Shown: positions 12,713-64,000 of the stretch, piece by piece
How positions within the stretch are numbered: position 1 is the stretch's first letter
How the letters are laid out: every line of letters starts with the position of its first letter
Source of the DNA: Deltaproteobacteria bacterium
Lineage (GTDB): Bacteria; Desulfobacterota; Binatia; HRBIN30
DNA: 64,000 nucleotides
Direction of reading: 5' to 3'
Assembly: GCA_016200585.1 (NCBI GenBank)
Contig: JACQEN010000195.1
Location: 3,939-67,938 of the forward strand
Program-made: the position numbers and the translations under genes
The notes under the pieces: generated by a model
Told to the model about the DNA's origin: nothing
Seen by the model: only the letters and a program-made list of their open reading frames with translations
The model's database searches: none

Positions 12713-12911
12713 GCGGGGAGCCGTACCAGAGCTACCGCATTGCCTCAAACCGGCGATTCCTCGAATTTGCTTCGCGGCTCAAGTCGGAGAGCGCGCTACC
12801 AGGCTTGAGAATCGTGGACGATCCCGGCTTACCTTGCGACGCTGGAACCCTTGTCCGTGAGGCTCGAAGCGCCTGGCGCATGATTCGCTACTGATTCGTT
12901 GCAGCCATGGA

Positions 12912-26693: not shown

Positions 26694-26987
26694 CGATTTA
26701 ACCCAGGTGCAAATTGAGAGCCGTCGCCGCGGTTCAAAGAGTCTGAGAAACTTCTTGAAGGAATTTCCGGATCGTGGGAGAGGCGGAAGCTTGCGAAACA
26801 TGAGTCTGTTCGCGCACTCTGGGATTCGTAGATTGGGTCGACAGCAAATTTCTCCAACTTCTCCGATGGTCAGAGTTGTTAGTTTCGTGTTCAGGCGAGT
26901 CCGTAGCGAGCAGCGCCGGTCGATTCACCAATATCCATTTGCGACCTGGCGTCGTGACGTGAAATAGTTTTGCTCGAGGACGAATCG

Positions 26988-31236: not shown

Positions 31237-32334
31237 GTGAGTCTGGAGCAACCGCAAGCCGTTTTGTCGTATCTGGTATCGCCGGTTTTCGACGGAGTCG
31301 AACAGCTGCGCCTGCGGTTGGGGCGTGAGGTCGTGTCTTTGGTTTCGACCGACCCCGAGCCCGACATGCGAGCGTTCGCCGTGCCAGCGGGAGACCCGGG
31401 CTTGTTCGCACCCGACAGCCCAGCTTGGGAAGTGCACGCCGACGCGTCGATGTTCGTCGGCGGCATCCGAGCCTTGCTGCTCCAAGCCATGCATCCTTTG
31501 GCGATGGCCGGTGTAGCGGAACACTCCGACTACAAGCGACAACCTTTGCGCCGCTTGCAGCGCACCGCCGAGTTCATCCGCGATACGACCTATGGCAACC
31601 GGCGCCAGGTCAGAGAGGCGACTCGTCGAGTTCGGCAGATTCATAAGCACGTGAAGGGAATCGCGCCCGACGGGCGGCGCTACTCGGCGTCGGACCCGGA
31701 GCTGTTGCGTTGGGTGCACGCGGCCGAAGTCGACTCGTTCCTCACCGCCTACGAGCGCTACGGTGCAAAGCCGATCACGCGTGCGCGGGCCGATCGCTAT
31801 CTCGACGAAATGGCGGAGGTGGCGATCCTGCTTGGGGCCGACTGGGTGCCGCGCAGCCAGCGCGAATTGAAGAAGTACCTACGCGACGTGCGGCCTGATC
31901 TGGTGGCCGGCGAACAAGCACGCGAGACGGCGGAATGGTTGCTGCGAACTCCGGCTCATGCCCGCGGCTGGCTACCGCAGATGATTCTCAACGTCGCTGC
32001 CATTGGCTTGTTGCCGGCGTGGGTGCGGCGCGAGCTCGGCCTGGTTCCGGTGCCGTTCGTCGATCCGTTGCTCGTGGTCGACCCATTGATCGTACGCCCC
32101 ACTGCGACCGCTCTGGTGCGTACCTTGGGTTGGGCGTTGGCACCGAACATCGTACGCGAAGCAGCGCAGCAACGTTGGAAGCGCAAGACGAAGGTGCGAC
32201 GCACCAAGACGCCGCGTGCCAAGGCACCGCGTGCCAAGGCACCGCGTGCTGGAGCGAAGGTCGCGAATGCGTCGGGGGGCAGGGAGCGGCGTGCGAAGAT
32301 CGCGTCGACCTCGCCGGCGCTGAGCCTGGCGTAA
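31237..32334 (+). CDS. Oxygenase MpaB-family / DUF2236 protein
   Basis: FAPDSPAWEVHADASMFVGGIRALLLQAMHPLAMAGVAEHSDY..RLQRTAEFI..TYG..VRQIHKHVKG..YSASDPELLRWVH. The GTG start at 31237 follows gggagagggga. Confidence 0.75.
   Translation: MSLEQPQAVLSYLVSPVFDGVEQLRLRLGREVVSLVSTDPEPDMRAFAVPAGDPGLFAPDSPAWEVHADASMFVGGIRALLLQAMHPLAMAGVAEHSDYKRQPLRRLQRTAEFIRDTTYGNRRQVREATRRVRQIHKHVKGIAPDGRRYSASDPELLRWVHAAEVDSFLTAYERYGAKPITRARADRYLDEMAEVAILLGADWVPRSQRELKKYLRDVRPDLVAGEQARETAEWLLRTPAHARGWLPQMILNVAAIGLLPAWVRRELGLVPVPFVDPLLVVDPLIVRPTATALVRTLGWALAPNIVREAAQQRWKRKTKVRRTKTPRAKAPRAKAPRAGAKVANASGGRERRAKIASTSPALSLA
32212..32249 (+). repeat. 15-bp tandem repeat (ccgcgtgccaaggca, about 2.5 copies) encoding a PRAKAPRAKAPRA tail
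   Basis: Read directly: copies at 32212..32226 and 32227..32241, plus a partial copy at 32242..32249. Confidence 0.9.
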
Positions 32335-34041: not shown

Positions 34042-36072
<2,031 letters not shown>

Positions 36073-36255
36073 TTATACAGCCCATGGCGGCTTCGGCAAT
36101 TGGCGCAAGGGCCTTGCGGCGGTTTCTTGTGGGTGGGGGGCGAGAGGCTCACGAGCTCAGGGCTCGGCAAAATGGAAATTGACATTCGCGCGGTTGTCAC
36201 GGAAGCTACCGCTCCACCGCTGGTGAACGGAACACGATACGTGCTGAGTCGGTTG

Positions 36256-39092: not shown

Positions 39093-42000
39093 GTGGTGCG
39101 GTCGTCGACAAATTCACAATTTCCGAAGCTGAGAGCCCTGCGATGGCAGACAGCTTCTGTGGTGGTTTCAATTGTGGGTTTGCTAAGCGGCTGTGGTGGG
39201 GGTGGGAGCGGCAGCACAACGAATGCTCCGGGCGGCTTGGCGCTTAGGGCTCTTTGGGAGCGATCTTCCACGGCGCATTCGTTGTTTCGGCCGAAAGCCT
39301 TCCAGGGCGGCTCGGAGCTTCCAGCCAGTGTATCGACGATCGTTGTGCGAGTCGGAGCTACGCAACGCGTCGTCGATCCGCATTGCGAAGCCGTGAACGG
39401 CGACTTCCCGTGTCGGCACGTCGAGATCGACGGATTGCAGCCAGGGCCGACGACCGTCCAGGTTGTCGGCTACGACGTGCCATTCGCAGCGGCAAGCACC
39501 ATCGATCAATTTGATCTTGCGCCTTCGTTCCGCAGCGATCGGCTCGATGTGATGATCCATGCCGGACAGGTGGCGGATGTGGAAGTTGATGTATTGGCTC
39601 AGCCGTTTGTTGCCTCGATCGACCCGTCTCCAGGCGCTACCGGGGTCTTCCGATCGACCCCGTTGAGCTTCCTTGTCGTCACCGCCGCCAACAGCATCAA
39701 CCTCAGTTCGATTCAAGTCGATGTCAATGGTTCTCGGGTCGTCGACGCCGGCGACCCGACGGATGGGGCACTGCTTGCCGATTGCAACGACTTGGATCCA
39801 GAAGCCCAACCGTGTACGCCCGGCGGCGCAAAGGGTGTGAGCGGCTTCTTGATCACCTACCAGCCGCTGGATGCATTTCCATCGACGACCCCGGTGACGG
39901 TTCGAGTGCAAGCGAGCGATTTGAACAGTCCGGCCCGCTCTGTCGACTTCTCGTATGCCTTTACGACCGGCACGCTTGCCGCAAGTCCGACACCGACGTG
40001 GACGCCGAGCTTGACTGCGACCCCGACCGCGACGCCGACGCGAACGGAAACGCCAACGCAGACACCGACGCCGACGGTTACGCCATCGAATACGCCGACC
40101 CCTTCCTTTACGGCGACGAGCACGGCTACAGAAGTACCGTCGGCGACGCCAACCAGCACGTCGACATTCACGCCGACGCAAACGGCTAGCCCGTCGGTGA
40201 CGCAAACGCCGACGGACACGCCCACCGACACACCGACCGAAACGCCGACGTTGACTCAGACGGCGACGGCGACGCCGACGGATACGCCGACCGCGACATC
40301 GACGGAGACGCCGACGTCTACAGCGACGAGCACGCCGACGGCGACCGCGACGTTGACCGAGACACCGGTCGCTTCGTTCACGCCGTCATCGACCGCGACG
40401 GAGACTGCGACGGCGACGGTGACCGATACCGCGACTGAAACCGCCACGCCGACGCCTTCGCAAACGCCGTCGTCGACGCCGACCAGCAGCGACACGCCGA
40501 CCGACACGCCGACGCCGACCAACACGGAAACACCGACGGAGACGCCGACCGTCACCGATACGCCGACCTTGACGGCGACCGAGACTCCGACGGAAACCCC
40601 GACGCAAACCGCGACGCCGACGGATACACCGACACCCACCGAAACATCGACGGCGACGGTGACGGCGACGCCAACCGAGACGCCAACGCCGACCGAAACC
40701 GCGACCGAAACGGCTACGCCGACTCAGACCGCGACCCCCAGCGACACACCGACGGTTACCGAAACACCCACGGAAACGGCGACGCCGACGGTGACCGACA
40801 CGCCGACCGAGACGCCCACCCCAAGTGAGACGCCGACGGCAACCGATACTGAGACAGTCACCGAAACACCGACCGAAACGGCAACACCGACACAGACGCC
40901 GACGGCAAGCGATACGCCTACGGCGACTCAGACATCCACCGATAGTCCCACGCCATCGGTGACGGCGACGGCGACGGAAACACCGACGGAGACGGCTACA
41001 GCGAGCGCCTCCGAAAGTCCGACCGCTACGCCAACCGAGACAGCGACGGAAACGCCGACCGACACCGCGACGGAGACGCCGACCGAGACCGTTACCGAGA
41101 CGCCGACAGAAACCGCTACGGAAACTGCGACGCCTACGGAAACGCCGACGGTCACGGCTACCGCAACGGCCACCGAAACCGCCACGGAGACGCCCACACC
41201 GACGATCACGGATACGCCCACCGAGACAGCGACCCCGAGCGTAACGGCAACGCCGACGGAGACGGCCACGCCGTCAGCGACGTCGACCGCAACGTCTACG
41301 GCCACGCCGACGGTGATCCCGCGCGCCTATGTAAGTAACGCCGGCAGCAACAGCGTGTCGGTAATCGATACGACCTCGAACACGGTGGTCAGCACCATTC
41401 CGGTTGGTACGAGCCCGTTCGGCGTTGCCGTAAGCGGTCAGGGGACGCGTGTCTATGTGACCAATCAATCCAGCAACAGTATGTCGATCATCGATGCCGG
41501 GGTGAACGCCGTCATCAATACGGTTGGCGTCGGACGCGGTCCAGTCGGATTGGCGGTGATGGCCACGGGAGACAAGGTGTACGTTGTGAACAAGATCGAC
41601 GCCAACGTGTCGGTTTACGACGTCAACAACGGGATCCTCGGCAATATCGCGGTCGGTAACTCGCCCGTCGGCATTGCGGTGAACCCAATTCAGGCAAGGG
41701 CCTATGTCGCCAACCAATTGAGTAACTCGATTTCGGTCATCGATACCAACTTCGATGTTGTCGTCGATACCTTGTCGATTGCCAGCCAGCCCTTCGGCAT
41801 CGCTGTCAGTCGCGACGGCGGTCGCTTCTACTTTACCAACCTCGGTAACAACAGCGTTGTCGAAGTGGAAACGACGACCAATACGGTTGTTCGCACCTAT
41901 CTGCTCGGCAACAACACGCGACCGTTTGGTGTTACGGTAAGCCCGGATGGAACACATGTGTACGCTGCTAATGTCCAGGGTAACTCGGTATCGGTTATCA

Positions 42001-42251
42001 ACACGGTGACGCACGCGCTGACCACGGTATCCCTCGGCACCGGTAGTGCTCCGTTCGGCGTTTCGGTGAATCCGGAAGGCACCTTGCTCTACGTTGCCAA
42101 CTCGAATCGAGGGAACGTGTCGGTGATCGACGCTTTGACGAACGCAGTCGTGCGCACGATTGCGGTTCAGTCGATGCCGACTGCGTTTGGCCAGTTCATT
42201 GAACCCGCAGCGGCCCAGTCGGGCGGTACGGGTTCGCTCATTGTGCCGTAA
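39093..42251 (+). CDS. Giant lipoprotein: lipobox, Ig-like region, about 440-aa acidic Thr/Pro stalk, C-terminal YVTN-type beta-propeller
   Basis: The signal and lipobox are [23 protein letters not shown] starts at 39093/39096 follow aggagg. Propeller repeats are [71 protein letters not shown] and [17 protein letters not shown]. The C-terminal end is MPTAFGQFI. Confidence 0.8.
39984..41313 (+). repeat. About 443-aa acidic Thr/Pro/Glu/Asp low-complexity stalk (degenerate [ED]TPT / TATPT units)
   Basis: e.g. [54 protein letters not shown]...[52 protein letters not shown]. The DNA is dominated by acg/acc-ccg-acN-gaN codon strings. Confidence 0.9.
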
Positions 42252-52543: not shown

Positions 52544-53002
52544 ATGAAGCGACGAAATCTCATTGAAATGACCGAAGACGAACGCCGCGTGTTTCTGGCG
52601 GACGCCCGTACCATTACTTTGTCGACCATCGATCCGCGTGGCTACCCGCACTCGGTCGCTATGTGGTACGTGATGGACGGCGATTGTACGCTGATGACGA
52701 CCTACGCAAAGTCGCAGAAGACGAGAAACATCGAGCGCAATTCAAAGGTAGGGTTGATGGCCGAAACCGGGACGACCTACGATACGTTGAAGGGGGTGTT
52801 GATTCGAGGTCGCGCCGAGCTGATCCGCGAAGAAGAGAAATGCCTGGAAGTCCTCAAACGAGTACATGCAAAGATGCTGGGCTCGTTTCCCGAAGGGATC
52901 GATGAGGCGCTCCGAGCCCAGGCCCGCAAACGGGTTGTCGTCCGCGTGGTACCCGAACGCATCAGCAGCTGGGACCATTCAAAGCTAGGCGGAGTCTACT
53001 GA
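52544..53002 (+). CDS. Pyridoxamine 5'-phosphate oxidase-family (PPOX class, possibly F420/FMN-dependent) protein
   Basis: 152 aa. LADARTITLSTIDPRGYPHSVAMWY..KTRNIERNSKVGLM..VLIRGRAELI. Confidence 0.75.
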   Translation: MKRRNLIEMTEDERRVFLADARTITLSTIDPRGYPHSVAMWYVMDGDCTLMTTYAKSQKTRNIERNSKVGLMAETGTTYDTLKGVLIRGRAELIREEEKCLEVLKRVHAKMLGSFPEGIDEALRAQARKRVVVRVVPERISSWDHSKLGGVY

Positions 53003-53084
53003 GGAAGGTTCCGGCTGGCGGCGAAAACTTGCGTCGGTAATTTTCTGCGGTTTTTCCGGTCGGGAATTGAGCGAGGAACCTGGA

Positions 53085-53113
53085 TTGCAATTGCGCACCT
53101 GCCGGCGCATACA
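53085..53113 (+). promoter_or_regulatory. Candidate sigma70-type promoter, TTGCAA-N17-CATACA (weak -10)
   Basis: Read directly, about 50 nt upstream of the first stalk gene. The -10 matches only 3 of 6 positions, so confidence is low. Confidence 0.2.
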
Positions 53114-53162
53114 CGGTCGCGCGGTGTGTCGAGAAGGCGCAACGCACGGAGCCGTGGGCGTT

Positions 53163-55451
53163 GTGACAGCGAAAAGAGTAGGAATGGTACTCAGCATTGC
53201 GCTCGGCGCGGTGCTCACTCTGACCGGGGCAGGGTTGGCGTTGCAAGGCGATGCCGACTGCAACGGCACGGTCGATAGCAGCGATATCGCGGCCACGGTT
53301 GTGGCAATCTTCGAGGGATCGAGTTGTGCCGGTGGCGATGCCAACCTCGATGGTGCGCTGACGGCTGCCGATGTGAGCGCTGCGATTCGGATGGTCGGTT
53401 CGTCGCGGGCCACTGCTACGCCGACCGAGACGCCAACAGACACTCCACGCACCGAAGAGTCGCCAAGTCCGAGTGTCTCAGAAACTCCAGGTCCGTCGAC
53501 GACCGCCTCGGCGACTCCGAGCAGCAGCGCCACTGGCACCAAGGATTCAACCCAAACGCTGACCGCCACTGCGTCGCGTACGCCGACGATCGTTCCGACG
53601 ATCACTGCAACCGCTTCGAGCTCGGCCACGGCAAGTTCGACGCCCACCCTGGTGTCGTCCGCGACGCCGACGCAGTCGCCAAGTCCTTCTCCAACCGAGA
53701 GTCCGACGGATACCCCTAGTGCAACGGAATCGATACCGCCATCTGCTTCGCCAACCACTACCGCCACAGTGCCACCGACACAGAGTTCGACGGCAACTGT
53801 TTCGCCGAGTTTCACGCCGACCATTACCGTTACGTTTACGGCGAGCCGGACCGCGACGGTCACGAGAACCCTGACTTCGTCGCTGACCCCCACCGTTACC
53901 GGAACGCCTTCGTATACGATACCGCCGACGCGTACTCGCACGGAGACGCCGACGAAATCACCGACGCGTACGTGGAGCGCGACAACCACGGCGACAGGCA
54001 CGGCCACGCAGAGCCCGACCGAAACGGGGACTGCGACACGAACCGGAACGGCGACTCAAACACCGACGCGGACCGGCACTCCGACCAAAACGGCGACCCC
54101 GACGATGACGGTGACGCGCACGGCGACAGGCTCGCCAACGGAGACGGCAACCAGCACCCAGACGTCAACGCGCACGCCAACGGCAACCGAGACACCGTCA
54201 AGCACGCCGACCGTGACGACAACACCCAGTCCGACGCGGACGGTGACGGCGAGTCGGACGCCAACGTCGACTGCGACGTCGCCCGGATCTCCCACGGCGA
54301 CCGGTACACGTACGCCTACTTCGACTGGGACAGCAAGTGCCTCCCCGACGGCATCCTCAACCGCCACCCGTTCGTATACTCCGTCGCCGACTTTCACCGG
54401 CACGGCGACGGTTCCGGCGACGCGCACCGCCACCTTGACACGGTCGCCAACGCTGACTGGGACGCCGACGCGCACGGCAACGGCAAGCTCGACGCTGCAG
54501 CCGACGCTGACCGCGACGGTGACGCAAACCCCGACCGGAAGCCGCACTCCAACGGGTACTCAGACCGCCACGCCGTCACGGACAGCGACGCGCACGCCGA
54601 CGTCATCGCCCACGCTCAGCGCGACGCCAAGCTTTACGGGAACAGGAACCCGCACCCCGACGCGGACGGCGACCTTGACGGCGACCGCAACGGCAACGTT
54701 CACAACAACGCCGAGTGCTACGCTGACGCGAACCCCGACGCCGACGCCGACGCCGACACCCTCGCCGACGAAGACCGCCACACGTACCGCGACCGCTACG
54801 GCAACGGCGACGCAACCGGCGATTGGGCCGCACGTGCTGACGCTAGCGGTTGTCACCAGTTTCGATGGCTGCGTGTTCTGTTGTGAACAGAGTTGCGCGC
54901 GTACTCCTACACCAACTCCGGCCTTCGACGGACTGGGGCGGCGAATTTTCACGACGGCGAGCGGGCAGTTCGTACTCGTCGTTGAAGGTGTGGCGGGGGC
55001 TAGCGCGCGGGCGCCCGGGACGTCGCTGCAGCCGTCCTCATCCGACAACCGCCCCGATCTGTGGATCGAGAGTACCAGACCGTTGGGAAATGGCAGCACG
55101 CAAGTTTGCGATACGGGGCCGCCCTCTGCCGGTGGTGGCGGAGTTCCCGCCGTCAGCCCGCCGAGCTTTTCGTCGGGCATCCAGAGCGTTACCGACGCGC
55201 TCAACGATTTTGCCTGCCGCTTCGACCCGTCGGTCGGCGCGGCTGCTCCGTGTACGGTTTTGGATTCCACACGCGAGCCGCGGTTGATCAACTCGTCTGC
55301 TAGCGTGCAATTCTGTGACTTCGTGGCAACCACGGCGACGTTCCCGCTGGGTGACAGTGTGGTCTCGGTGGCGCTGAGAGACGTTGCCGGCAATATCGGT
55401 CCGACAGCGCAGGTGGTGGTGCACGTTGTGACGCCGACGCCCAAGCCGTGA
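53163..55451 (+). CDS. Secreted 'dockerin-like anchor / about 470-aa Thr-Pro stalk / Cys-rich head' protein, paralog A
   Basis: ORF track 53067..55451. The likely start is GTG 53163 (MTAKRVGMVLSIALGAVLTLTGAGLALQ) or ATG 53184. See the module, stalk and head sub-features. Confidence 0.8.
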   Translation: MTAKRVGMVLSIALGAVLTLTGAGLALQGDADCNGTVDSSDIAATVVAIFEGSSCAGGDANLDGALTAADVSAAIRMVGSSRATATPTETPTDTPRTEESPSPSVSETPGPSTTASATPSSSATGTKDSTQTLTATASRTPTIVPTITATASSSATASSTPTLVSSATPTQSPSPSPTESPTDTPSATESIPPSASPTTTATVPPTQSSTATVSPSFTPTITVTFTASRTATVTRTLTSSLTPTVTGTPSYTIPPTRTRTETPTKSPTRTWSATTTATGTATQSPTETGTATRTGTATQTPTRTGTPTKTATPTMTVTRTATGSPTETATSTQTSTRTPTATETPSSTPTVTTTPSPTRTVTASRTPTSTATSPGSPTATGTRTPTSTGTASASPTASSTATRSYTPSPTFTGTATVPATRTATLTRSPTLTGTPTRTATASSTLQPTLTATVTQTPTGSRTPTGTQTATPSRTATRTPTSSPTLSATPSFTGTGTRTPTRTATLTATATATFTTTPSATLTRTPTPTPTPTPSPTKTATRTATATATATQPAIGPHVLTLAVVTSFDGCVFCCEQSCARTPTPTPAFDGLGRRIFTTASGQFVLVVEGVAGASARAPGTSLQPSSSDNRPDLWIESTRPLGNGSTQVCDTGPPSAGGGGVPAVSPPSFSSGIQSVTDALNDFACRFDPSVGAAAPCTVLDSTREPRLINSSASVQFCDFVATTATFPLGDSVVSVALRDVAGNIGPTAQVVVHVVTPTPKP
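53247..53396 (+). other. Dockerin-like module (paralog A)
   Basis: GDADCNGTVDSSDIAATVVAIFEGSSCAGGDANLDGALTAADVSAAIRMV. Confidence 0.55.
53409..54817 (+). repeat. About 470-aa Thr/Pro/Ser/Ala/Arg low-complexity stalk (paralog A)
   Basis: e.g. [84 protein letters not shown]. Confidence 0.9.
54818..55448 (+). other. Conserved Cys-rich C-terminal head domain (paralog A), unrecognised family
   Basis: AIGPHVLTLAVVTSFDGCVFCCEQSC..GRRIFTTASGQFVLVVEG..RPDLWIESTRPLGNGSTQVCDTGPPSAGGGGVPAVSPPSFS..TDALNDFACRFDP..PCTVLDSTREPRL..QFCDF..FPLGDSVVSVALRDVAGNIGPTAQVVVHV. Confidence 0.7.
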
Positions 55452-58054
55452 ATCGCTCGCCTTTCAGACTCCTGACGGTCGGGATCGCACTGACGGCATT
55501 GCTGGCATCGGCTTGTCGCGCTCAGGCGGCGATTTCCGCGGATCTCAACTGCGATGGTGTAGTGGACAGCGCCGACCTAGCTGTTGCGGTTGCTGCGCTA
55601 TTTGAACCCACGGTAGGCGGTTGTGTCTCCACCGACGTCAACCTTGATGAGCGCCTCAGTGCGGCCGACGTGATATCGTTGATCCGTTCCGCATCTTTTC
55701 TTGCGCCAACTGCGACCGCCACGGATCTACCGTCGCCGACGTTGAGCCTGACTCCATCCCCCGAGGCGACTCGTACATCCGAGCCCACCGATAGCCCGAC
55801 GCCGAGTGTCACGATCTCCCCGACACCCTCGCCACTGCCGAGCTTGTCCCCGTCGGCCACCGTGACCTTCACGGCATCGTTGACCAAGCCGGCGACTCGT
55901 TCACCCACCTCAACGAGAACCTCGGCCGAGGTCCTCGCCAGTCCAACATTCACCGCCGAAGAGATCCCGTCCTCACCTTCGGTGACGCCGTCGGAGGTCG
56001 GCGGCACGGCTACTCCGTCGACCGAGCCCAGTGCCGAAACCACGTCGACCCCTTCGCCGACGGGTACGGAGTCGCCGAGTGCGACCGCCGTGGAAACGGA
56101 AACCGCGACGGCGACACCTTCCCTTTCGCCGCCCCCGACTGCAACCGCAACGGTGACCTCGAGCTGGTCGGCGACCCCGGCGCCAACCGATACGGCTACG
56201 CCGACGCCGTCCATGACCCTGAGCCCGACAATGAGCCCGACAATGAGTCCGACTGCGTCGACCTCCGCGACGCCTTCCCCGATTTTGTCTCCGACACCGT
56301 CGGGCACACCTTCGCGCACGCCATCCAAAACCAGGTCAATGACTCCTACGTCGAGTTTCACGCACACGCCGTCTGCGACGCCGACAACGTCCGCGACTCG
56401 GACATCGACGGCGACCAGCAGTCCGACGGTGACACGAACCCCGACCGAGACCCCGACGTCTACGCTCACGGCGACGCCGACAAGCACGGAAACGCCGTCG
56501 CCAACGTACAGTCCGACACGCACGGCCTCTCCCTCGCGCACACCGACTTCGAGTGCTTCGCCGAGCCACACCCCACTGCCGACGATGACTCCGACCCCGA
56601 GCTCGACCGAAACCGGCACTCGAACCGCGACGCGGACGCCAACCGCGAGCCTGACGCCGACGAGCACGATCACTCGCACCCCGACGCGCACGCCGCTGCC
56701 GAGCTTCACGCCGACGCCGACGGCCACACCGACATGGAGCCCCAGTCCGACCGTTACACCTACAGGGACGCGGTTGCCAAGTCGAACCCCGAGCCCGAGC
56801 CCGACGGGAACCGCGAGCGTCACTCCCACGGCGACGGTGACGGCTACTTCGACGCCGACTCCCTCCGCTACTTCCACACCCACGGTGTCGCCGACTCCAA
56901 CAAACACGCCAACGTTCACGGCCACGCCGACAATCACGGCGACGGCCACGCTGACTGCGACGCCGACCGTAACCCCGACGATTACGATTACGCCAACGGC
57001 GACTCCAACATCGACGGTGACCGCTACGGATTCGCCGACGGCGACCGCGACGGAAACTCCAACGCTGACTCCGTCGCCGACGGAAACCGCTACAGCGACG
57101 CAGACCCCCTCGAGAACAGGTACGTCAACCGCAACGGGATCGCCGACAAGAACGCCGACGCGAACGGCGACGGCCACCTTCACGCCGACGCTGACGCCAA
57201 CGAACACCGCCTCGTTTACCCCTACGGCTACTCGGACGCCGACTCGAACTGGCACGCCGACTCCGACCGGGACGTCCACACCCACGGCGACGACGACATT
57301 CACCCCGACCATCACGCCCACTCCGACCGGTACCCGGAGCGCCACCCCGACTCCTAGTGTGACGCCCAGCGCAACAGCGTCGTCGACGCCGACCGCCTCG
57401 GCGACGACGACGCCAACCGGACAGGGACCGCAAGTTACGTTCTTGGGCGTGCTGACTCGTTTCGACGGATGCGCGTTTTGTTGCGAGGCGAGTTGTGTCA
57501 ACGCGCCAACGCCGATCCCGGAATACGATGCTGAAGGTAGGCGCGTTTACTACGCGTTGTCGGGGCAATTCGTGGTCGTGGTGGAAGCGCGCCCAGGCCT
57601 CAGCGGTGCGGCGGTGGCGACATCACTGCAAGCGGTCCCGCCGGACTACCGACCGGACATTTGGATCGAGAGCTCGCGCGATCTGGGCAACGGCAGTGCG
57701 AAGGTTTGTGATACCGGACCGGCGAATTCGGGCGGTGGCGGCGTGCCCGGAGTCGATCCACCGAATTTCTCCCTCGACCTGCCCGCCGTGACGAATGCCT
57801 TGGTTGATTTCGGCTGCCGCTTCAATCCAGGTATCAGCGCCGCCAGTCCCTGCACCATCGTTGACGCCACCCGTGAGCCGCGGCTGCTTACGGCCGCGAC
57901 GGCTCAATTCTGTGACTTCGTTTCCAGCACGAGCACCTTCCCAAGCGGAGAATCCGTTCTGACGGTCGCCTTGCGCGATACGGTGGGAAATATCGGACCC
58001 ACGGCGCAGATCGTTGTGCGCGTCGCCACACCGACAGCCACACCGACACCCTGA
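55448..58054 (+). CDS. Secreted 'dockerin-like anchor / about 570-aa Thr-Pro stalk / Cys-rich head' protein, paralog B
   Basis: The GTG start overlaps the paralog A stop (GTGA, 55448..55451). The signal is MNRSPFRLLTVGIALTALLASACRAQA. Whether it is cut by SPase I or is a non-canonical lipobox is unclear. Confidence 0.8.
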   Translation: MNRSPFRLLTVGIALTALLASACRAQAAISADLNCDGVVDSADLAVAVAALFEPTVGGCVSTDVNLDERLSAADVISLIRSASFLAPTATATDLPSPTLSLTPSPEATRTSEPTDSPTPSVTISPTPSPLPSLSPSATVTFTASLTKPATRSPTSTRTSAEVLASPTFTAEEIPSSPSVTPSEVGGTATPSTEPSAETTSTPSPTGTESPSATAVETETATATPSLSPPPTATATVTSSWSATPAPTDTATPTPSMTLSPTMSPTMSPTASTSATPSPILSPTPSGTPSRTPSKTRSMTPTSSFTHTPSATPTTSATRTSTATSSPTVTRTPTETPTSTLTATPTSTETPSPTYSPTRTASPSRTPTSSASPSHTPLPTMTPTPSSTETGTRTATRTPTASLTPTSTITRTPTRTPLPSFTPTPTATPTWSPSPTVTPTGTRLPSRTPSPSPTGTASVTPTATVTATSTPTPSATSTPTVSPTPTNTPTFTATPTITATATLTATPTVTPTITITPTATPTSTVTATDSPTATATETPTLTPSPTETATATQTPSRTGTSTATGSPTRTPTRTATATFTPTLTPTNTASFTPTATRTPTRTGTPTPTGTSTPTATTTFTPTITPTPTGTRSATPTPSVTPSATASSTPTASATTTPTGQGPQVTFLGVLTRFDGCAFCCEASCVNAPTPIPEYDAEGRRVYYALSGQFVVVVEARPGLSGAAVATSLQAVPPDYRPDIWIESSRDLGNGSAKVCDTGPANSGGGGVPGVDPPNFSLDLPAVTNALVDFGCRFNPGISAASPCTIVDATREPRLLTAATAQFCDFVSSTSTFPSGESVLTVALRDTVGNIGPTAQIVVRVATPTATPTP
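55538..55690 (+). other. Dockerin-like module (paralog B)
   Basis: ADLNCDGVVDSADLAVAVAALFEPTVGGCVSTDVNLDERLSAADVISLIRS. Confidence 0.55.
55705..57417 (+). repeat. About 570-aa Thr/Pro/Ser low-complexity stalk (paralog B)
   Basis: e.g. TPSATPTTSATRTSTATSSPTVTRTPTETPTSTLTATPTSTETPSPTYSPTRTASPSRTPTSSASPSHTPLPTMTPTPSSTETGTRTATRTPTASLTPTSTITRTPTRTP. Confidence 0.9.
57418..58051 (+). other. Conserved Cys-rich C-terminal head domain (paralog B)
   Basis: GQGPQVTFLGVLTRFDGCAFCCEASC..GRRVYYALSGQFVVVVEA..RPDIWIESSRDLGNGSAKVCDTGPANSGGGGVPGVDPPNFS..TNALVDFGCRFNP..PCTIVDATREPRL..QFCDF..FPSGESVLTVALRDTVGNIGPTAQIVVRV. Confidence 0.7.
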
Positions 58055-58185
58055 ACCTTCCATCAACGATTGCGAAAATCGCGGCTAAAATTGCAAATTC
58101 TGGTTGTTGCAAACAGAAGAACCGGCAGGCATTGAAGGACGCGATCTCAACGCACCACAATCGCAGTCAGGTCCAAACCTATCGC

Positions 58186-61113
58186 ATGAGCTGCCGCCTA
58201 CGATCGCTGAGGATGCTCTATCTCTCGTTCGCCGTATTGGTGGTGTGCGCACTAGCGCGAGGCGGCTTCGCGCAACCGCTTCCCGGCGATGCCAACTGCG
58301 ATGGCTCGATCGATGTGGCGGACGCTGAAGCGGCGGCTCTGGCGATCTTTGAAGGATCAAACTGTGGGGCAAGCGACGCCAACGCAGATGGGAGTGCGAG
58401 TGCCGCGGATGTCGTTGCCGTGTTGCGATTGTTCGTATCGGCGCCAACTCCTACATCGACACTCGCGCTGCCGACGGCATCGGAAAGTCCAATTTCGAGC
58501 TCGACGCCGACGCTCCCGCCACCGTCACCCACGGCGACCCTACAGATTGATCCAATCGAATCGCCGTCAAGCACCATGACGCCAACGATCGTCCCCTCGG
58601 ACACGCCCACGGCGACTCCCGTGGTCACAACCGTGGTACCGAGAACCAGCACGCCGTCCTCAAGCCCGGGGTTGACCGAGACGAAGCCGCCAACTGCTTT
58701 GCCGTCTGCGACCACGACCGCGACAGCCGATTCGACCCCAATCTCGACGCCGGAAACAACCGCGAGCGCAACATCGACGGTGCCAATTCCGACAGCAACT
58801 GCAGACGAGACTCCGACGACCGAGGGGTCGGCAACCAGCACGCCGACGGTCGCGTCGCCGTCGGCAACCGAAACGCCGTTCCCCTCGCCAACACTAGCCG
58901 AATCGGCGTCGCCTTCGGTAACGTCCAGTGAGACCTCGACGCCGACGGGCACCGAGAGTCAGCGCCCGACCGCGACAAGCTCTCCGACAGCGAGCGCGCC
59001 AACCCGAACGACATCGGTTACGCGGGCGGCAACGCTGACCGCTACGGCGACGGTGACGCCATCCGAGAGTGCCAGTCCGACGCTGAGCCGCACCTCGACG
59101 AACACCGCTACTCCGACTCGATCACCCTCACCGAGCTTCACCCTGCCGCCACCGCGAACGATGACGCCGACGCGTTCTCCCAGTGCGACTGCCACCGAGA
59201 GCCCATCGCCGACTGAGTCGCCATCGGCAACAGAAACATCGACGGGGACGCCGACTCCCTCGCCGACACCGAGCCGCTCGCCGACTCATACGACAACGGA
59301 ATCCCCCACGGCGACGGAGACCACGACGGGGACGCCGACACTGACTTGGACGATTCTTCCAAGTGTGTCGCCCACGAGAACCCTGACGGCGACGCAATCT
59401 TCGACTCCTGCGCCGTCGGGAACGTCCACGCCTTCGTCTACCGCGACGACGAGCAGCACCCGAACTGCCAGTGCCACGCGCACGGGGACCTTGCCACCGA
59501 GCGCGACGCCGACCAGAACTTCGACGAACACGTCGACGAGCACGCCGACCTCGACGTCAACGCGGACGATACCCCCGACACGCAGCGCCACTCCCAGCCG
59601 CACGCCAACGGAAACCGCCACTGCGAGCGCGACACGGACGCAGTCCTCGACGCCCACGCAGACCGCCTTAGCGACGGATACGGCAAGTGCGACGCCGACA
59701 CGCACGCCAACCGGCACGCCTACCGATAGGCCGAGTGCGACGTGGACGCCGACCAGCTCTGCGACTCGTACGCCGACTGATTCACCCAGCTCTACACCGT
59801 CTCGGAGCCCGACGATCTCGCCGACCGCGTCGCCTACGTTGCAACCGTCCTCGACGACAACATCCAGCCTTACGCCAACCGACACGGCGACGGAAACCCC
59901 TTCACGCAGTCCGTCTGCGACGGCGACGGCGACTTCCTCGCCGTCGCAAACGAGCACCCAAACGCCGAAGCCGACGGCGACACCTTCGAGATCACCCACG
60001 GTGACACCAACCGAGACGTGGACCCGAACTCCCTCGGTTACTCCCAGTGAGACGCCCACGGGCACCAGTACCGCGACGCAGACAGCGACGCGAACGCCGA
60101 CAGCAAGCTCCTCGCAAACTTCAACGAGGACAGCGACGCTGACGCCGACGGAGACGGCGACGCCAACCGATACGCCGACTTGGACTCCTACTCGCACGCC
60201 GACGGCGACGCCGACCTATACTTCGACGCGAACAGCGACACTGACGCCGTCGCCGTCGGCGACGCCTACGGATGTCCCGACGCAGACGCCGACGCGTACA
60301 CCTACGTCGACGCCCACCGAAACTCCGACGCGTACCGCGGCGGCGACAGGGACGCCGACGCGGACACCCACGGAAACGCCGTCACCGACTTCGACGGCAA
60401 GTCCAACGCTGTCGCGGACGGCGACGTTTACGCCGAATGCGACGCCGACCCGTACACCCACCTCTTCGGCGATTGGTCCTCAGGTCGCCTTCTTTGGCAT
60501 CGTTCCCGCGGATGGATGTTATGCATGCAACGATCCCGGTTGCTTGTGCGGAACAACGCCGACTCCGACGCCGATGCTCGATGGCAATGGGAGGCCGGTG
60601 TTCCTCACCGCCAATGCCGGCGGTTTTTTGCTCGTGCTCGAGGCACGACCGGGTACGAATGGCGCTTCGGTGGGCACATCGGTTCCGCCACCAACACCAG
60701 GGCAAGGTGTGCGTCCAGATCTGCAGATCCAAGCATCGAGCGCCCTGGGAAACGGAAGCGCTACGATTTGTGACACGCAGCGCATCGTCGATGGCGGTGG
60801 CGGCGTTCCTGGGTTCGATCCACCGGATTTCAGTTCGTTGTCTTCGATTACCGATGCGTTGATCGATTTCGCATGCCGTTTTGATCCGCACTCGCCGTCG
60901 GTGCCGTGTACTCTCTCTGGTGATGGCAATGACGGTACAATTACAGCGAATCTTCCGATTGGTTCCGAACAGTTTTGCTACCGCACAGAGATCAACACGG
61001 CCTTCCCGTACGGCGACACTGTCTTGACGGCGCAGGTGCGTGATTCGAGTGCGGCGCACAACATCGGACCCACTGCGCAGATCGTTATCCGTCGTGTAAC
61101 GCCGCATCCATAG
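58186..61113 (+). CDS. Secreted 'dockerin-like anchor / about 675-aa Thr-Pro-Ser stalk / Cys-rich head' protein, paralog C
   Basis: ORF track 58132..61113. ATG 58186 gives MSCRLRSLRMLYLSFAVLVVCALARGGFAQP. Confidence 0.8.
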   Translation: MSCRLRSLRMLYLSFAVLVVCALARGGFAQPLPGDANCDGSIDVADAEAAALAIFEGSNCGASDANADGSASAADVVAVLRLFVSAPTPTSTLALPTASESPISSSTPTLPPPSPTATLQIDPIESPSSTMTPTIVPSDTPTATPVVTTVVPRTSTPSSSPGLTETKPPTALPSATTTATADSTPISTPETTASATSTVPIPTATADETPTTEGSATSTPTVASPSATETPFPSPTLAESASPSVTSSETSTPTGTESQRPTATSSPTASAPTRTTSVTRAATLTATATVTPSESASPTLSRTSTNTATPTRSPSPSFTLPPPRTMTPTRSPSATATESPSPTESPSATETSTGTPTPSPTPSRSPTHTTTESPTATETTTGTPTLTWTILPSVSPTRTLTATQSSTPAPSGTSTPSSTATTSSTRTASATRTGTLPPSATPTRTSTNTSTSTPTSTSTRTIPPTRSATPSRTPTETATASATRTQSSTPTQTALATDTASATPTRTPTGTPTDRPSATWTPTSSATRTPTDSPSSTPSRSPTISPTASPTLQPSSTTTSSLTPTDTATETPSRSPSATATATSSPSQTSTQTPKPTATPSRSPTVTPTETWTRTPSVTPSETPTGTSTATQTATRTPTASSSQTSTRTATLTPTETATPTDTPTWTPTRTPTATPTYTSTRTATLTPSPSATPTDVPTQTPTRTPTSTPTETPTRTAAATGTPTRTPTETPSPTSTASPTLSRTATFTPNATPTRTPTSSAIGPQVAFFGIVPADGCYACNDPGCLCGTTPTPTPMLDGNGRPVFLTANAGGFLLVLEARPGTNGASVGTSVPPPTPGQGVRPDLQIQASSALGNGSATICDTQRIVDGGGGVPGFDPPDFSSLSSITDALIDFACRFDPHSPSVPCTLSGDGNDGTITANLPIGSEQFCYRTEINTAFPYGDTVLTAQVRDSSAAHNIGPTAQIVIRRVTPHP
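58286..58434 (+). other. Dockerin-like module (paralog C)
   Basis: GDANCDGSIDVADAEAAALAIFEGSNCGASDANADGSASAADVVAVLRLF. Confidence 0.55.
58438..60462 (+). repeat. About 675-aa Thr/Pro/Ser low-complexity stalk (paralog C)
   Basis: e.g. SPSPTESPSATETSTGTPTPSPTPSRSPTHTTTESPTATETTTGTPTLTW...TRTPTATPTYTSTRTATLTPSPSATPTDVPTQTPTRTPTSTPTETPTRTAAATGTPTRTPTETPSPTSTASPT. Confidence 0.9.
60463..61110 (+). other. Conserved Cys-rich C-terminal head domain (paralog C, most divergent)
   Basis: AIGPQVAFFGIVPADGCYACNDPGCLC..GRPVFLTANAGGFLLVLEA..RPDLQIQASSALGNGSATICDT..DGGGGVPGFDPPDFS..TDALIDFACRFDP..PCTLSGDG..EQFCYR..FPYGDTVLTAQVRDSSAAHNIGPTAQIVIRRV. Confidence 0.7.
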
Positions 61114-61257: not shown

Positions 61258-62547
61258 ATGCGAGAGTTGATGCGGAGTCCTTGGCTGCCCGTGCTGGGGG
61301 TGCTGCTGGCAGCGACCGGGATCGTTGGGGTCGCGGGGCAGGCTAGGGCCGATGTGACGACGGACGACGCCGGGTCGATTGTAATCTACCCGAAGGTGGT
61401 GTCGGATGGCACGCGGGACACGTTGATTCAACTGAGCAACCGTTCGAACATGCCGGTGTTTGTGCACTGCTTCTACGTGAACACGGCCGGTCGATGCAGT
61501 GCGACGACGGAGCAACGATGCCGACTCGATGGCGACTGTCCCTCGGGTGAATCCTGCGCGCGCACCTGTGACGCAAACGACTTTGATGTCCTTCTGACTG
61601 CGCAGCAGCCAACCATGTGGCGTGCATCCACTGGTCGCTTGGCGTCATTGACGCCGGGGCCCTGCCGAATCGGGCAAACTTGTGGTTGCTCCATCGACGT
61701 GGCAAGTGGCCAGCAAATTTGCCCGGGGCTTGAAGCCGCACCAAGCAACTCACCGTACACGCCTGCGGTTGGCGGCGAATTCGAGGGCGAACTGAAATGC
61801 TACCAGACCGATGTCAACGGTTTTCCGATTCCCGGCAACGCAATAAAGGGCACGGCGATTCTTGAGAACGTTTCGAATGGTCAGATCAGCGAATACAACG
61901 CTCTGACCGTTTCGGCGAACGCCGATCCAGTTGTTGGCGTCAACCAGGGGCAAGATCTGCAGCTCAACTATTCTGGGGGCGGAGCGGGCGAATACAACTA
62001 TTGTCCGTCGAACCTGGTGTTCACACACTATGGCGACCAGGCGGTCGATGCATTTACGAACGCGACGGTTAGCACAGAGATCACACTGGTCCCGTGTACG
62101 GAGTTGATCGAAGAACGCGCCCCGACGCCGGTGACAGTGAGTTTTCTGGGCTTCAATGAATTCGAACAGCGCTTCAGCGCCGATGCGATCTCCTTCGATT
62201 GTTACTTCAGCCGCAGTTTGGCGGATATCCCGAGTGAGGGGCAGCCGTTGTTCGTCGCTGGTGCTGGACAATGGTGGAAAACGCGAATTACGCCGTCGGC
62301 TTCGAACATTTGTTTGACGGGAAGCAGTCGCGGTCTAACATGTGCGTCCGACGCGGATTGTCCAGGGTTCTTGACTAGTCCCGAAAACAACAGTCTGGGA
62401 TGCCGGCCTGCACCGGGAGTGCTCGGGGTTGTGGAGGAGTTCCACGCAATCGGCGGGCTCGCGGTTGGCACGGCAGCGAACAACATGCACGTCGAAGGTC
62501 AGCGGAGCGGATTCGGGGACGTCATTGTGGTGCCGTCGCTCCAATAG
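61258..62547 (+). CDS. Secreted Cys-rich protein, unrecognised family ('PKV / HCFY / FNEFEQRFS' family), paralog 1
   Basis: The signal is LPVLGVLLAATGIVGVAGQARA. Then come GSIVIYPKVVSDGTRDTLIQLSNRSNMPVFVHCFYVN and the Cys-rich inserts CSATTEQRCRLDGDCPSGESCARTC and CLTGSSRGLTCASDADCPG. Other conserved segments are ITLVPC and FLGFNEFEQRFS. Length is 429 aa. Confidence 0.75.
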   Translation: MRELMRSPWLPVLGVLLAATGIVGVAGQARADVTTDDAGSIVIYPKVVSDGTRDTLIQLSNRSNMPVFVHCFYVNTAGRCSATTEQRCRLDGDCPSGESCARTCDANDFDVLLTAQQPTMWRASTGRLASLTPGPCRIGQTCGCSIDVASGQQICPGLEAAPSNSPYTPAVGGEFEGELKCYQTDVNGFPIPGNAIKGTAILENVSNGQISEYNALTVSANADPVVGVNQGQDLQLNYSGGGAGEYNYCPSNLVFTHYGDQAVDAFTNATVSTEITLVPCTELIEERAPTPVTVSFLGFNEFEQRFSADAISFDCYFSRSLADIPSEGQPLFVAGAGQWWKTRITPSASNICLTGSSRGLTCASDADCPGFLTSPENNSLGCRPAPGVLGVVEEFHAIGGLAVGTAANNMHVEGQRSGFGDVIVVPSLQ

Positions 62548-62564: not shown

Positions 62565-63812
62565 ATGGCGACAATGAAGAGTAGGGAAAGGAGTCGGACC
62601 ATGGTGCAGACGAGACGAGTTGCCGCAGCGGTTGTGGCAGCAGTGGCAATGGCGTCGAGTGCCCAGGCGATCAGCACGAGTGACAGGCCAGCGGCAATTC
62701 AGGTTTGGCCAAAGGTCGTGGTGGATTCCGCGGGTCGATTTACGCAGGGGGTGCCCGTCAACACGCTCATCACGCTCAGTAACACGGATCATCGTGGCGA
62801 GAAGCGGGCCCATTGCTTTTACACCAACGCGAATGGGCACTGCGCCAACAACTCTGCTCAGGTCTGTCGTAGCGCAACTGACTGCACGGCCTCGGAATGT
62901 ACTCCGGGCTGGGCCGAGATGGATTTTGACGTCTATCTAACACTTGAGCAACCGCTTGGTTGGTACGCCAGTGATGGCCTCTCGCGTGGCGCGTTTCCAA
63001 AGGAAGGTCCATTCTTCTGCAACGCGCCGCTCACCCAGGTTCCGTGTACGACCGACGCGGTCTGCGGCGGCCTCGGGTGCAATGTTGGACAGAGCAATCT
63101 TGGGAGCGGTATTCCTCCGGTTCCTGAGGACCCATTTATTGGGACCCTGACTTGTATTCAGTTCACGATTGGGAGCCAGTCGAGTCCGGACCAGACGGTT
63201 GACCGCAATCGCCTCTACGGAGAGGCGACGATTCTCCAAGGGGGGCCGGTAATCGGCGCCGCCCCATTGCCTGTTGACGTAGCGAAATACAATGCCGTTG
63301 GTTTCAGGGGCCAGGGTGTAAATTTTGATCCGACAAATACCTTCCAGCTCGGCGGCGCCGGTGCTGAATACGACGGTTGTGCCTCGACCCTGATTCTCAG
63401 TCATCTGTTCGACGGTGCCATTGATCCAATATCGAACACCCGCCCGGCTTCGACAGATCTAACGCTTGTTCCGTGTGGCAACAATTTCTCGAGCCAGATC
63501 CCAGGTCGAACGACAGCCCAATTTCTGGTGTTCAATGAGTTCGAGCAAAGGTTTTCGACGAGCCGCTCCATTGATTGCCTGTTTGATGGTGCAATTTCGA
63601 CAATCGATACGCGCAACACGGCACGATCGATCTTCAGCGCTGGCGTTGCAGGTACGATTTCTGGTCAAACTCGGATTCGTGGCGTTGGTGGAAACGCAAC
63701 GGGTTATGGTTTGATCGGTACCGCGCAACTTTCCCTTGGATCGGGTTCGAGCGCCGCCTACAATCTGCACCAGCAAGGGGTTGGCGGCACGGACTTCATC
63801 ATCATTCCCTGA
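62565..63812 (+). CDS. Secreted Cys-rich protein, same unrecognised family, paralog 2
   Basis: ORF track 62400..63812. ATG 62565 after gaggggacgggag gives MATMKSRERSRTMVQTRRVAAAVVAAVAMASSAQA. Then come AAIQVWPKVVVDS..NTLITLSNTDHRGEKRAHCFYTN, HCANNSAQVCRSATDCTASEC, LTLVPC and FLVFNEFEQRFS. Confidence 0.75.
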   Translation: MATMKSRERSRTMVQTRRVAAAVVAAVAMASSAQAISTSDRPAAIQVWPKVVVDSAGRFTQGVPVNTLITLSNTDHRGEKRAHCFYTNANGHCANNSAQVCRSATDCTASECTPGWAEMDFDVYLTLEQPLGWYASDGLSRGAFPKEGPFFCNAPLTQVPCTTDAVCGGLGCNVGQSNLGSGIPPVPEDPFIGTLTCIQFTIGSQSSPDQTVDRNRLYGEATILQGGPVIGAAPLPVDVAKYNAVGFRGQGVNFDPTNTFQLGGAGAEYDGCASTLILSHLFDGAIDPISNTRPASTDLTLVPCGNNFSSQIPGRTTAQFLVFNEFEQRFSTSRSIDCLFDGAISTIDTRNTARSIFSAGVAGTISGQTRIRGVGGNATGYGLIGTAQLSLGSGSSAAYNLHQQGVGGTDFIIIP

Positions 63813-63874: not shown

Positions 63875-64000
63875 ATGAGGGCGAGACAGGGCGGCTGGCT
63901 CTTAGCGGTCGGAATAGGAAGTTTGCTGCTGAGTGCTGTAACGGCACGAGCAGACGTAGGTGGGGACCGGCCGGGGTCGATCCTGATCTTTCCGAAGGTT
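63875..64000 (+). CDS. Secreted protein, third paralog of the 'PKV' family; partial, continues beyond the window
   Basis: My own translation gives MRARQGGWLLAVGIGSLLLSAVTARADVGGDRPGSILIFPKV. This has the same signal + GSI[VL]I[YF]PKV opening as paralog 1. Confidence 0.6.
   Translation, partial: MRARQGGWLLAVGIGSLLLSAVTARADVGGDRPGSILIFPKV

Follow-up and report, generated by a model that had tools for sequence, protein, structure and literature searches.

Which proteins do three neighbouring genes with conserved ends and a very long Thr-rich middle encode, and how would such proteins work? The window analysed here is a whole stretch of 64,000 nucleotides (nt), positions 3,939 to 67,938 of the forward strand of contig JACQEN010000195.1 (assembly GCA_016200585.1). 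It comes from an uncultured Candidatus Binatia bacterium. Genes A, B and C occupy 53163-61113 of this window. We read them as paralogous secreted proteins, each a single polypeptide of four parts: a signal peptide, a dockerin-like docking module, a (T-X)n stalk and a Cys-rich head. The system is real, conserved and uncharacterised. It joins two orphan families, the head and a family of Cys-rich neighbours, with a dockerin-type tag in an uncultured phylum. For the reading of A, B and C as tethered, stalked binding proteins, taken as a whole, we see about an even chance.

In the favoured mechanism, a Sec signal peptide would lead to secretion. The dockerin-like module would then tether the protein, non-covalently and in a Ca2+-dependent way, to a receptor on the cell surface or in a matrix. 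The Thr/Pro-rich stalk, probably O-glycosylated, would act as an extended spacer of tens of nanometres up to about 200 nm, and its length would change in two-residue (6-nt) steps. The head would be a binding module and not an enzyme. Finally, the C-type protein would work with four Cys-rich all-beta proteins, which could serve as a docking platform, a co-assembled structure or a ligand. Surface display of the three proteins is part of this proposal.

The genes are co-oriented on the plus strand. Gene A (53163..55451) encodes 762 amino acids (aa) from a GTG at 53163. An ATG at 53184 is an alternative start, and the longest open reading frame (ORF) opens at 53067. The product consists of a signal peptide (aa 1-28), a dockerin-like module (aa 29-81, nt 53247-53405), a (T-X)n stalk (aa 86-552, nt 53418-54818) and a head (aa 553-762, nt 54819-55448). 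Gene B (55448..58054) encodes 868 aa, with the signal peptide at aa 1-27, the module at aa 28-82 (nt 55529-55693), the stalk at aa 86-657 (nt 55703-57418) and the head at aa 658-868 (nt 57419-58051). Gene C, which gives its name to a C-type clade, lies at 58186..61113 and encodes 975 aa from an ATG at 58186, the longest ORF opening at 58132. Its signal peptide covers aa 1-29, the module aa 30-82 (nt 58273-58431), the stalk aa 86-761 (nt 58441-60468) and the head aa 762-975 (nt 60469-61110). The tetranucleotide GTGA (55448-55451) belongs both to the stop of A and to the start of B, and 131 nt (58055-58185) separate B from C. Promoter and terminator scans gave results no better than chance level.

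This gene order, with its overlap and its gap, had been proposed in a sequence-only reading of the DNA and is confirmed in the ORF list. The same reading had given all three proteins a signal peptide and a dockerin-like module of about 50 aa, which also stands. In the N-termini, a basic segment is followed by a hydrophobic one and an A-x-A-like site, so by eye they were judged to be signal peptides. The module measures about 53 aa and holds two D-x-[DN]-x-[DN]-G...D loops. The low-complexity middles of T, P, S and A, estimated at about 470, 570 and 675 aa, measure 467, 572 and 676 aa. The chains end with the head itself (...VTPTPKP, ...TPTATPTP and ...RRVTPHP). The anchor, stalk and head layout is real and is kept across about 25 loci. 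Our comparison drew on named sources and on 21 loci from species-representative genomes, and both come almost entirely from Candidatus Binatia.

The public annotation presents these genes in another way. The NCBI record, a MAG contig of 67,939 bp that bears the label 'Deltaproteobacteria bacterium', carries the locus tags HY270_14755, 14770, 14795 and 14800 over the window. Its products for the three heads have 192, 231 and 189 aa (P0001, P0002 and P0004) and start at internal codons. It could be, then, that the heads are small genes of about 200 aa, and that the T/P DNA is non-coding, coding on the opposite strand or a collapsed repeat. The sizes of the NCBI products, long antisense ORFs and the failure of third-position G+C content (GC3) to discriminate the strands all speak for such an annotation or assembly artefact. 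However, neither a stop codon nor a change of frame separates the docking module from the head in the three genes of the window, and the same holds for about 34 other ORFs (about 25 loci). This makes about 37 of about 37, where a non-coding spacer would keep the frame in only one third by chance. P0002 begins with MFCCEQSC and P0004 with MCGTTPTP, so both public starts fall within the conserved head domain and cut off invariant residues. The heads have neither a start codon nor a signal peptide of their own, despite their eight Cys. Moreover, full-length homologs with short linkers exist. One is P0019 (310 aa); another, P0024 (353 aa), joins a signal peptide and a docking module to a head through about 70 aa of T/P linker. 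The shared frame, the heads without start or signal peptide, the short-linker homologs and the absence of any domain boundary on offer in Pfam or NCBIfam lead us to read each gene as a single polypeptide. Chance likeness of the heads is excluded, because each scores at about E 1e-79 to 1e-97 against the family profile (A, 4e-97; B, 3e-97; C, 8e-79).

The antisense ORFs have a simple origin. The largest (55522..57501, minus strand, 659 aa, V/G-rich) lies opposite the stalk of B; it is no gene but results from the ACN/CCN codon bias. V/G/A-rich minus-strand ORFs of the same kind face the stalks at 52985-54007, 58218-58952 and 59286-60197, and the set spans 244-659 aa. GC3 fails as a strand discriminator, since the antisense and sense frames share their third positions and do not differ in it. 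Gene callers err because the stalk codons (ACN, CCN, TCN and GCN) keep long V/G-rich ORFs open on the opposite strand. The public records of L001, L024, L025, L026 and L027 likewise list, over stalk DNA, minus-strand 'genes' that have no Pfam match, with a truncated head after them. T/P-rich stalk genes of high-GC genomes are in this way miscalled systematically. As callers take the antisense ORFs and the truncated heads, surveys of the secretome, adhesins or pangenome of Binatia miss the stalk genes. Other high-GC lineages with T/P-rich linkers may suffer the same gene breakage.

Assembly errors were considered as well. In the stalk DNA, TRF reports only short degenerate arrays, with periods of 6-102 nt and 58-100% matches. 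A repeat search found families that are 60-88% identical and driven by composition; the top identity, about 88%, extends over only 32-39 nt. Triads of the genes recur in L003, L009 and L027, and doublets in L001, L004, L005 and L007, which are independent assemblies with the same gene order. The single-gene layout also occurs on a contig of 4.77 Mb (L022). With no long high-identity repeats, a gene order that recurs in independent assemblies and a copy on so long a contig, misassembly by repeat collapse is unlikely. To the artefact explanation as a whole we give almost no credence.

The docking module is the only part with demonstrable family membership. The dockerin family PF00404 matches A at aa 29-77 (11.6 bits), B at aa 31-80 (18.9 bits, E 0.0017) and C at aa 33-79 (17.1 bits). 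When 17 modules were isolated, 14 matched PF00404, with a best E of 4e-10. Above-threshold matches come from P0122 (25.3 bits) and from the protein encoded at 35905-38982 of the window (23.4 bits). A profile of the 17 modules, searched against sequences of the PDB, retrieves 4fl4_A (E 8.8e-7) and 2ccl_B (E 1e-5) over profile positions 2-52. The entries 1daq, 2mte, 2vn6 and 1ohz (E <=2.4e-4) and many more dockerins of cellulosomes come next, and EF-hand proteins after them. In the alignment of the 17 modules, the ligand positions 1, 3, 5 and 12 are kept in both 12-residue Ca2+ loops. D4, D33 and D37 are invariant and N35 is at least 90% conserved. The B module has E in place of G at position 6 of loop 2. 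Homology to type I dockerins is supported by the full-length profile match to solved type I dockerins, the 14 family matches and the kept ligand positions. The dockerin-like label given to the N-terminal module in the sequence-only reading is therefore borne out.

The module also has features of its own. An invariant pair of Cys, one at position 4 of loop 1 and the other just before loop 2, probably forms a disulfide clamp. Like cellulosomal type I dockerins, the Binatia module has a duplicated Ca2+-binding loop-helix motif in about 50-55 aa. In contrast with them, it is N-terminal, right after the signal peptide, carries the conserved Cys pair and is attached to non-cellulolytic cargo.

The same kind of module appears on unrelated proteins. 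An RHS/YD-repeat toxin-like protein (970-6267, minus strand, 1765 aa, domains read by eye) begins with a signal peptide, a four-Cys variant of the dockerin-like module (TGDCNPTDGEVAIDELITMVNIALG...GDANGDGDVTIDEIIQAV) and a T/P linker, here a short one. The secreted protein at 35905-38982 (plus strand), one of the two above-threshold matches, has domains of the PPC (pre-peptidase C-terminal) type (PF04151, E 8.5e-15) and a T/P linker of about 90 aa. In L001, a PMP-repeat protein and an RCC1-like protein, both secreted, end in dockerin-like modules. Conversely, three head proteins (P0109, P0124 and P0166) have a lipoprotein N-terminus in the place of the docking module. Because the module is common to unrelated cargo and can be replaced by a lipid anchor, we infer that it is an address or anchor tag. 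Dockerin-like tags and long T/P linkers are widespread in the Binatia lineage.

True dockerin homology raises the question of a cellulosome-like complex. In such a complex, dockerin-tagged cargoes would sit on a cohesin-type scaffold, the heads would be catalytic or substrate-binding and the T/P tracts would be ordinary Pro/Thr (PT) linkers. Many different dockerin-tagged proteins in this genome region and a GH39-like gene at 10919-12748 agree with it. PT-type linkers are typical of secreted glycoside hydrolases. Nevertheless, no cohesin was found among the neighbours in the window or in a Foldseek search with the first Cys-rich paralog, and the head has no match to a carbohydrate-active enzyme or a carbohydrate-binding module in sequence or fold. 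The linkers, with 450-680 aa, are about ten times longer than usual enzyme linkers, and the dockerins are N-terminal. Moreover, the cargo includes an RHS toxin, and such a toxin is no degradative enzyme. We hold this explanation to be unlikely, though still deserving some weight.

A different possibility is that nothing is tethered. The proteins could be secreted toxins, bacteriocin-like effectors or scavengers, with a module that only aids folding or stability in a Ca2+-dependent way and a low-complexity tract that serves as a protease-resistant spacer. Dockerin-like modules reportedly occur in many organisms without known cohesins. No receptor has been identified for the Binatia module, and the RHS toxin bears the same tag. 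On the other hand, the lipoprotein anchor that replaces the module in relatives argues for tethering. The genes are also connected, in a conserved and operon-like manner, with four other secreted proteins, and very long stalks are hard to explain in a diffusible effector. Untethered effectors thus seem to us a rather unlikely answer, and tethered, stalked binding proteins remain the preferred one.

The stalks that would carry the heads are dominated by four amino acids: T (34-38%), P (14-19%), S (14-18%) and A (10-11%) in A, B and C. The autocorrelation of Thr lies near +0.5 at even lags and near -0.5 at odd ones and can be followed out to lags of 160-300, compared with 0.00 +/- 0.04 in shuffled sequences. 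This two-residue register runs unbroken for 200-560 aa, with 0-2 shifts, in 33 of 33 stalks, which come from the window and from 20 loci. Most X positions are filled by A, P, R, G or S, and Pro takes 19-29% of them.

The middle had been described as having no conserved length or sequence, and only part of this description holds. There is little positional homology: orthologous stalks are 46-49% identical, against 37-45% for shuffles that preserve the register. However, the strict Thr register is kept for hundreds of residues. Length is not entirely free either, since the linker becomes longer along seven of the eight contiguous tandem arrays, although these arrays are phylogenetically non-independent. 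The orthologs in the window and in L003 have stalks of similar length (457/485, 562/561 and 665/595 aa). Between species the linkers differ, as a comparison of related genomes showed: from module to head they measure 224-663 aa among single-head relatives. No relative with more than about 66% head identity was found besides the window's own record.

The earlier suggestion of repeat-mediated length variation finds slight support. Every period reported by TRF is a multiple of 6 nt (6, 12, 18, 24 and 102), and so growth in two-residue units fits. However, long high-identity repeats of the Periscope type are missing. A reach of 100-200 nm had also been proposed. The contour length, at about 0.3 nm per residue, is 140-200 nm, but this sets only an upper limit. 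Without modification, a random coil of 470-680 residues would measure about 20 nm from end to end, as estimated from denatured-chain scaling. The true span would fall between about 20 nm and the contour length, given the Pro content, glycosylation or crowding in a brush.

The strict register allows another explanation, in which the function lies in the (Thr-X)n tracts. They could form an ordered beta-ribbon, a silk- or amyloid-like sheet or a Thr ladder that builds a fibre, a sheath or a matrix. In that case, the dockerin and the head would serve as end caps or as cross-linkers, perhaps in an assembly with the Cys-rich proteins. The register is unbroken over 200-560 aa in every stalk examined. 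The ascending linkers of the arrays and the similar lengths of the orthologs in the window and L003 point to a constraint beyond that of a flexible spacer. Pro weighs against this explanation, as 14-19% of the stalk residues and 19-29% of X. Such a Pro content disfavours regular beta-sheets. Relatives with short linkers or several heads also exist.

The same register is found in an unrelated protein. The gene at 39093-42251 (plus strand) encodes a YVTN beta-propeller lipoprotein-like protein of 1052 aa (LSGCGGG; TIGR02276, 7 repeats, E 5.5e-45). Its N-terminal Ig-like region is followed by a (T-X)n stalk, acidic and about 440 aa long (TPTETPT...), and then by the YVTN beta-propeller. The register of this stalk is stricter than that of A, B and C, with a lag-2 autocorrelation of +0.83. 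Because an unrelated lipoprotein carries such a stalk, (T-X)n is a linker style of the phylum and not specific to the head family, and it is a style that 6-nt slippage could generate. For tracts that are themselves the structure we therefore keep a low expectation, and an extended spacer between tether and head is the reading preferred. In either case, the two-residue register bears on the origin of very long low-complexity linkers, by 6-nt slippage, and on their structural constraint.

The stalks leave a mark on the composition of the DNA. Over the three stalks (54000-60000), GC skew ranges from -0.09 to -0.16 and AT skew from +0.09 to +0.24. An AT-skew spike of +0.35 at 40-42 kb covers the stalk of the YVTN protein. 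Skew spikes of this kind serve to flag T/P-stalk genes quickly.

The heads of A, B and C have 210, 211 and 214 aa, with eight Cys each, and each docking module adds two more. The sequence-only reading had counted 8-10 Cys. Head A is 60% identical to B and 47% identical to C, and mean column identity is 70%. As in the earlier alignment by eye over about 200 aa, the three heads can be aligned from end to end, and every block listed there, among them GGGGVP, LGNGS, DF.CRF, PCT, QFC and NIGPTAQ, falls on invariant columns. An exhaustive profile search gave 630 representatives at 50% identity, nearly all of them from Candidatus Binatia. The family signature consists of about 210 aa, four core Cys (positions 97, 133, 145 and 165 of head B), an invariant E56 and the motifs RPDLQI, LGNGS, GGGVP, DF.CRF, PCT, QFC and GN.GP. 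Every motif is present in all three heads. Over 217 domains, the four core Cys are 94-100% conserved. D130, R134, Q163 and D187 are at least 92% conserved and E56 is invariant. The N-terminal cluster of four Cys is gained or lost as a unit (phi 0.6-0.93).

An AlphaFold2 model of the B head, built from 85 sequences, has a largely beta fold of eight strands and a single helix (predicted local distance difference test, pLDDT, 95.2; predicted template modelling score, pTM, 0.91). Searched with the full A-C proteins and with 85 family heads, Pfam and NCBIfam gave no match for the head. Two head profiles searched against PDB sequences found nothing below E 0.29. Among Foldseek candidates, the best in the PDB, the p53 DNA-binding domain, is a non-match (template modelling score, TM, 0.26-0.30; root-mean-square deviation about 13 A; E >=2e-3). 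The viral proteins of BFVD are also non-matches (E >=0.012), and the binding region of SrpA (5eq4_B) is not significant (E 0.0097, TM 0.24). An enzyme assignment has no supporting signal in Pfam or NCBIfam. The head could not be assigned to a named family in the sequence-only reading, and after these searches this is still so. The model suggests an undescribed, disulfide-stabilised and beta-rich family.

Some relatives carry two to five heads in one polypeptide, with PT linkers between them (P0121 and P0122). The multi-head relatives include the ORFs at 2399-4963 in L012 and 8390-10531 in L017, and P0121, P0122 and P0124. The N-terminal four-Cys cluster is often missing in them. Tandem copies in relatives, a disulfide-rich composition and the lack of a catalytic signature lead us to infer that the head is a binder.

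Downstream of C begins an array of Cys-rich secreted proteins. Paralog 1 (61258..62547, plus strand) is all-beta and has 429 aa, 18 Cys and a clear Shine-Dalgarno sequence, GGAGG. Paralog 2 (62565..63812, plus strand) has 415 aa and 13 Cys and is 34% identical to paralog 1. Paralog 3 starts at 63875 (MRARQGGWLLAVGIGSLLLSAVTARADVGGDRPGSILIFPKV..., 63875..64000, plus strand) and runs off the end of the window. Its translation matches the N-termini of third paralogs in L003, L009, L010, L011 and L013. The array was present in ten loci: the window, L003, L009, L010, L011, L013 and L024-L027. All ten have four paralogs in fixed order, with a co-oriented gene of the dock-stalk-head type immediately upstream. 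The gene directly before the array belongs to the C-type clade or to more distant equivalents, in a clustering of heads from the window, L003, L009, L010, L011, L013, L024 and L025. The C head clusters with the array-preceding heads of L003, L010 and L013. Because this upstream gene is found in every one of the ten loci, we take the four Cys-rich proteins to be probable functional partners of the C-type protein.

The Cys-rich family has at least 874 homologs, all hypothetical. Among 63 members, no Pfam or NCBIfam match went beyond chance hits to WAP, defensin and nodulin, and a search of PDB sequences with the family profile gave nothing below E 0.29. Comparison of the head and Cys-rich profiles with hhalign indicates unrelated families. 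The AlphaFold model of paralog 1 reaches a pLDDT of 86.4. Its Foldseek matches in the PDB to a transglutaminase, an arrestin and a toxin are non-matches (TM about 0.1). One beta-sandwich of the model gives a local Foldseek match to 1nc7 (Thermotoga TM1070; probability 1.0, target TM 0.7, E 0.013), a weak lead. TM1070 belongs to the ASRT superfamily, for which sugar binding has been predicted (PMC2739507).

Other genes accompany the array in some loci. A stand-alone receiver gene (PF00072, 131-134 aa) comes right after the fourth paralog in L024 (15223-15627), L025 (15205-15606) and L026 (15085-15480). A second dock-stalk-head gene lies beyond the array in L024, L025 and L011.

The array allows a bolder picture, a display specific to the phylum and independent of cohesins. 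A disulfide-clamped tag and a (Thr-X)n linker would send many cargoes to the surface, the four Cys-rich proteins would form a heteromeric docking platform or fibre, and A, B and C would stand as a brush of graded heights. This brush would be layered and probably glycosylated, and the register would reflect a defined stalk structure or a glycosylation code and not drift. We regard the complete picture as improbable.

Several points weigh against tethered, stalked binding proteins. The PF00404 scores of A, B and C are all below the Pfam gathering threshold of 22.9 bits. Cohesin is not among the Foldseek matches of Cys-rich paralog 1, the sole neighbour modelled. The strict dipeptide register may signal an ordered structure instead of a passive spacer. 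The invariant Glu and the conserved Asp, Arg and Gln of the head could equally mark a catalytic site. In Pfam scans of 20 flanking proteins of the window, no glycosyltransferase was found, which leaves O-glycosylation unsupported, and no secretion system lies beside the genes. Binatia are presumably diderm, and a Sec signal peptide alone does not explain the passage through the outer membrane. Finally, we know of no cultured member of Binatia.

Compared with known surface proteins, A, B and C might be said to resemble fibrillar or serine-rich-repeat adhesins, by analogy and without membership in either family. The nearest analogues in function, the serine-rich-repeat proteins (SRRPs) of Gram-positive bacteria, such as GspB, Fap1, SrpA and PsrP, are also single chains with an anchor, a very long stalk of hydroxy amino acids and a globular binding region. 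Their stalk is likewise a two-residue repeat, its length varies widely by species and the folds of the binding regions are diverse. In the glycosylated stalk repeat of SRRPs, Ser alternates with A, V or T (PMC6973325). The Binatia stalks are Thr-X (T 34-38%, S 14-18%) and not Ser-X. Their polarity is inverted, with an N-terminal anchor and a C-terminal head, and a dockerin-like Ca2+ module takes the place of the C-terminal LPXTG. SRRPs have a signal peptide of about 90 aa with a domain for accessory Sec transport (AST), whereas the Binatia signal peptides have about 27-29 aa and no AST. The Pfam scans of the 20 flanking proteins contained no SecA2, SecY2, Asp or Gtf genes. Furthermore, the host phylum is uncultured and presumably diderm, in contrast with the Gram-positive hosts of SRRPs.

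In fibrillar adhesins and Periscope proteins (SasG, Aap, Rib and Sgo0707), a stalk also projects a terminal domain, and its length differs between relatives (PMC9704523, PMC9210967). However, Periscope stalks are built of highly identical, independently folding repeats (PMC9704523), and the Binatia stalk is a degenerate (T-X)n tract without high-identity DNA repeats. By the fibrillar adhesin criteria of Monzon and Bateman, no Pfam adhesive or stalk domain is present in A-C or in 85 family heads. The head and the anchor fall outside the known adhesin and anchor families, and only the three-part logic is shared.

PT-box linkers and mucin-like domains are presumed to be extended, and they are O-glycosylated in several systems. 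The PT boxes of CenA and Cex from Cellulomonas fimi and mucin-like domains are, like the Binatia stalks, dominated by T and P in a two-residue repeat. The Binatia stalks differ in being 10-30 times longer, in having Pro at only 19-29% of X, beside A, R, G and S, and in keeping the register over hundreds of residues.

A literature search found nothing on surface proteins or dockerins of Binatia. If the favoured reading is true, an abundant uncultured phylum of soil, sediment and sponges makes its surface interface from parts that are absent in databases. Both orphan families (630 clusters at 50% identity and at least 874 homologs) have confident predicted folds without solved relatives, and the dockerin-type tag that wires these parts had until now been linked chiefly with cellulosomes. 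What makes the system worth following up is the orphan fold, the invariant four-paralog link, the dipeptide register and the systematic misannotation.

The rest of the window gives some context. The upstream synteny, an alpha/beta hydrolase gene and a PNPOx-like gene, is shared with L001, L003, L004, L005, L007, L008 and L027. A glycyl-radical enzyme of the pyruvate formate-lyase type is encoded at 24255-26801 on the minus strand (PF02901, 8e-138, and Gly_radical). A protein with an MpaB/Lcp-type, rubber-oxygenase-like catalytic domain is encoded at 31237-32334 on the plus strand (PF09995, 4e-63). Hydrocarbon metabolism has been proposed for Binatota (PMC8262859), and these two enzymes may be related to it.

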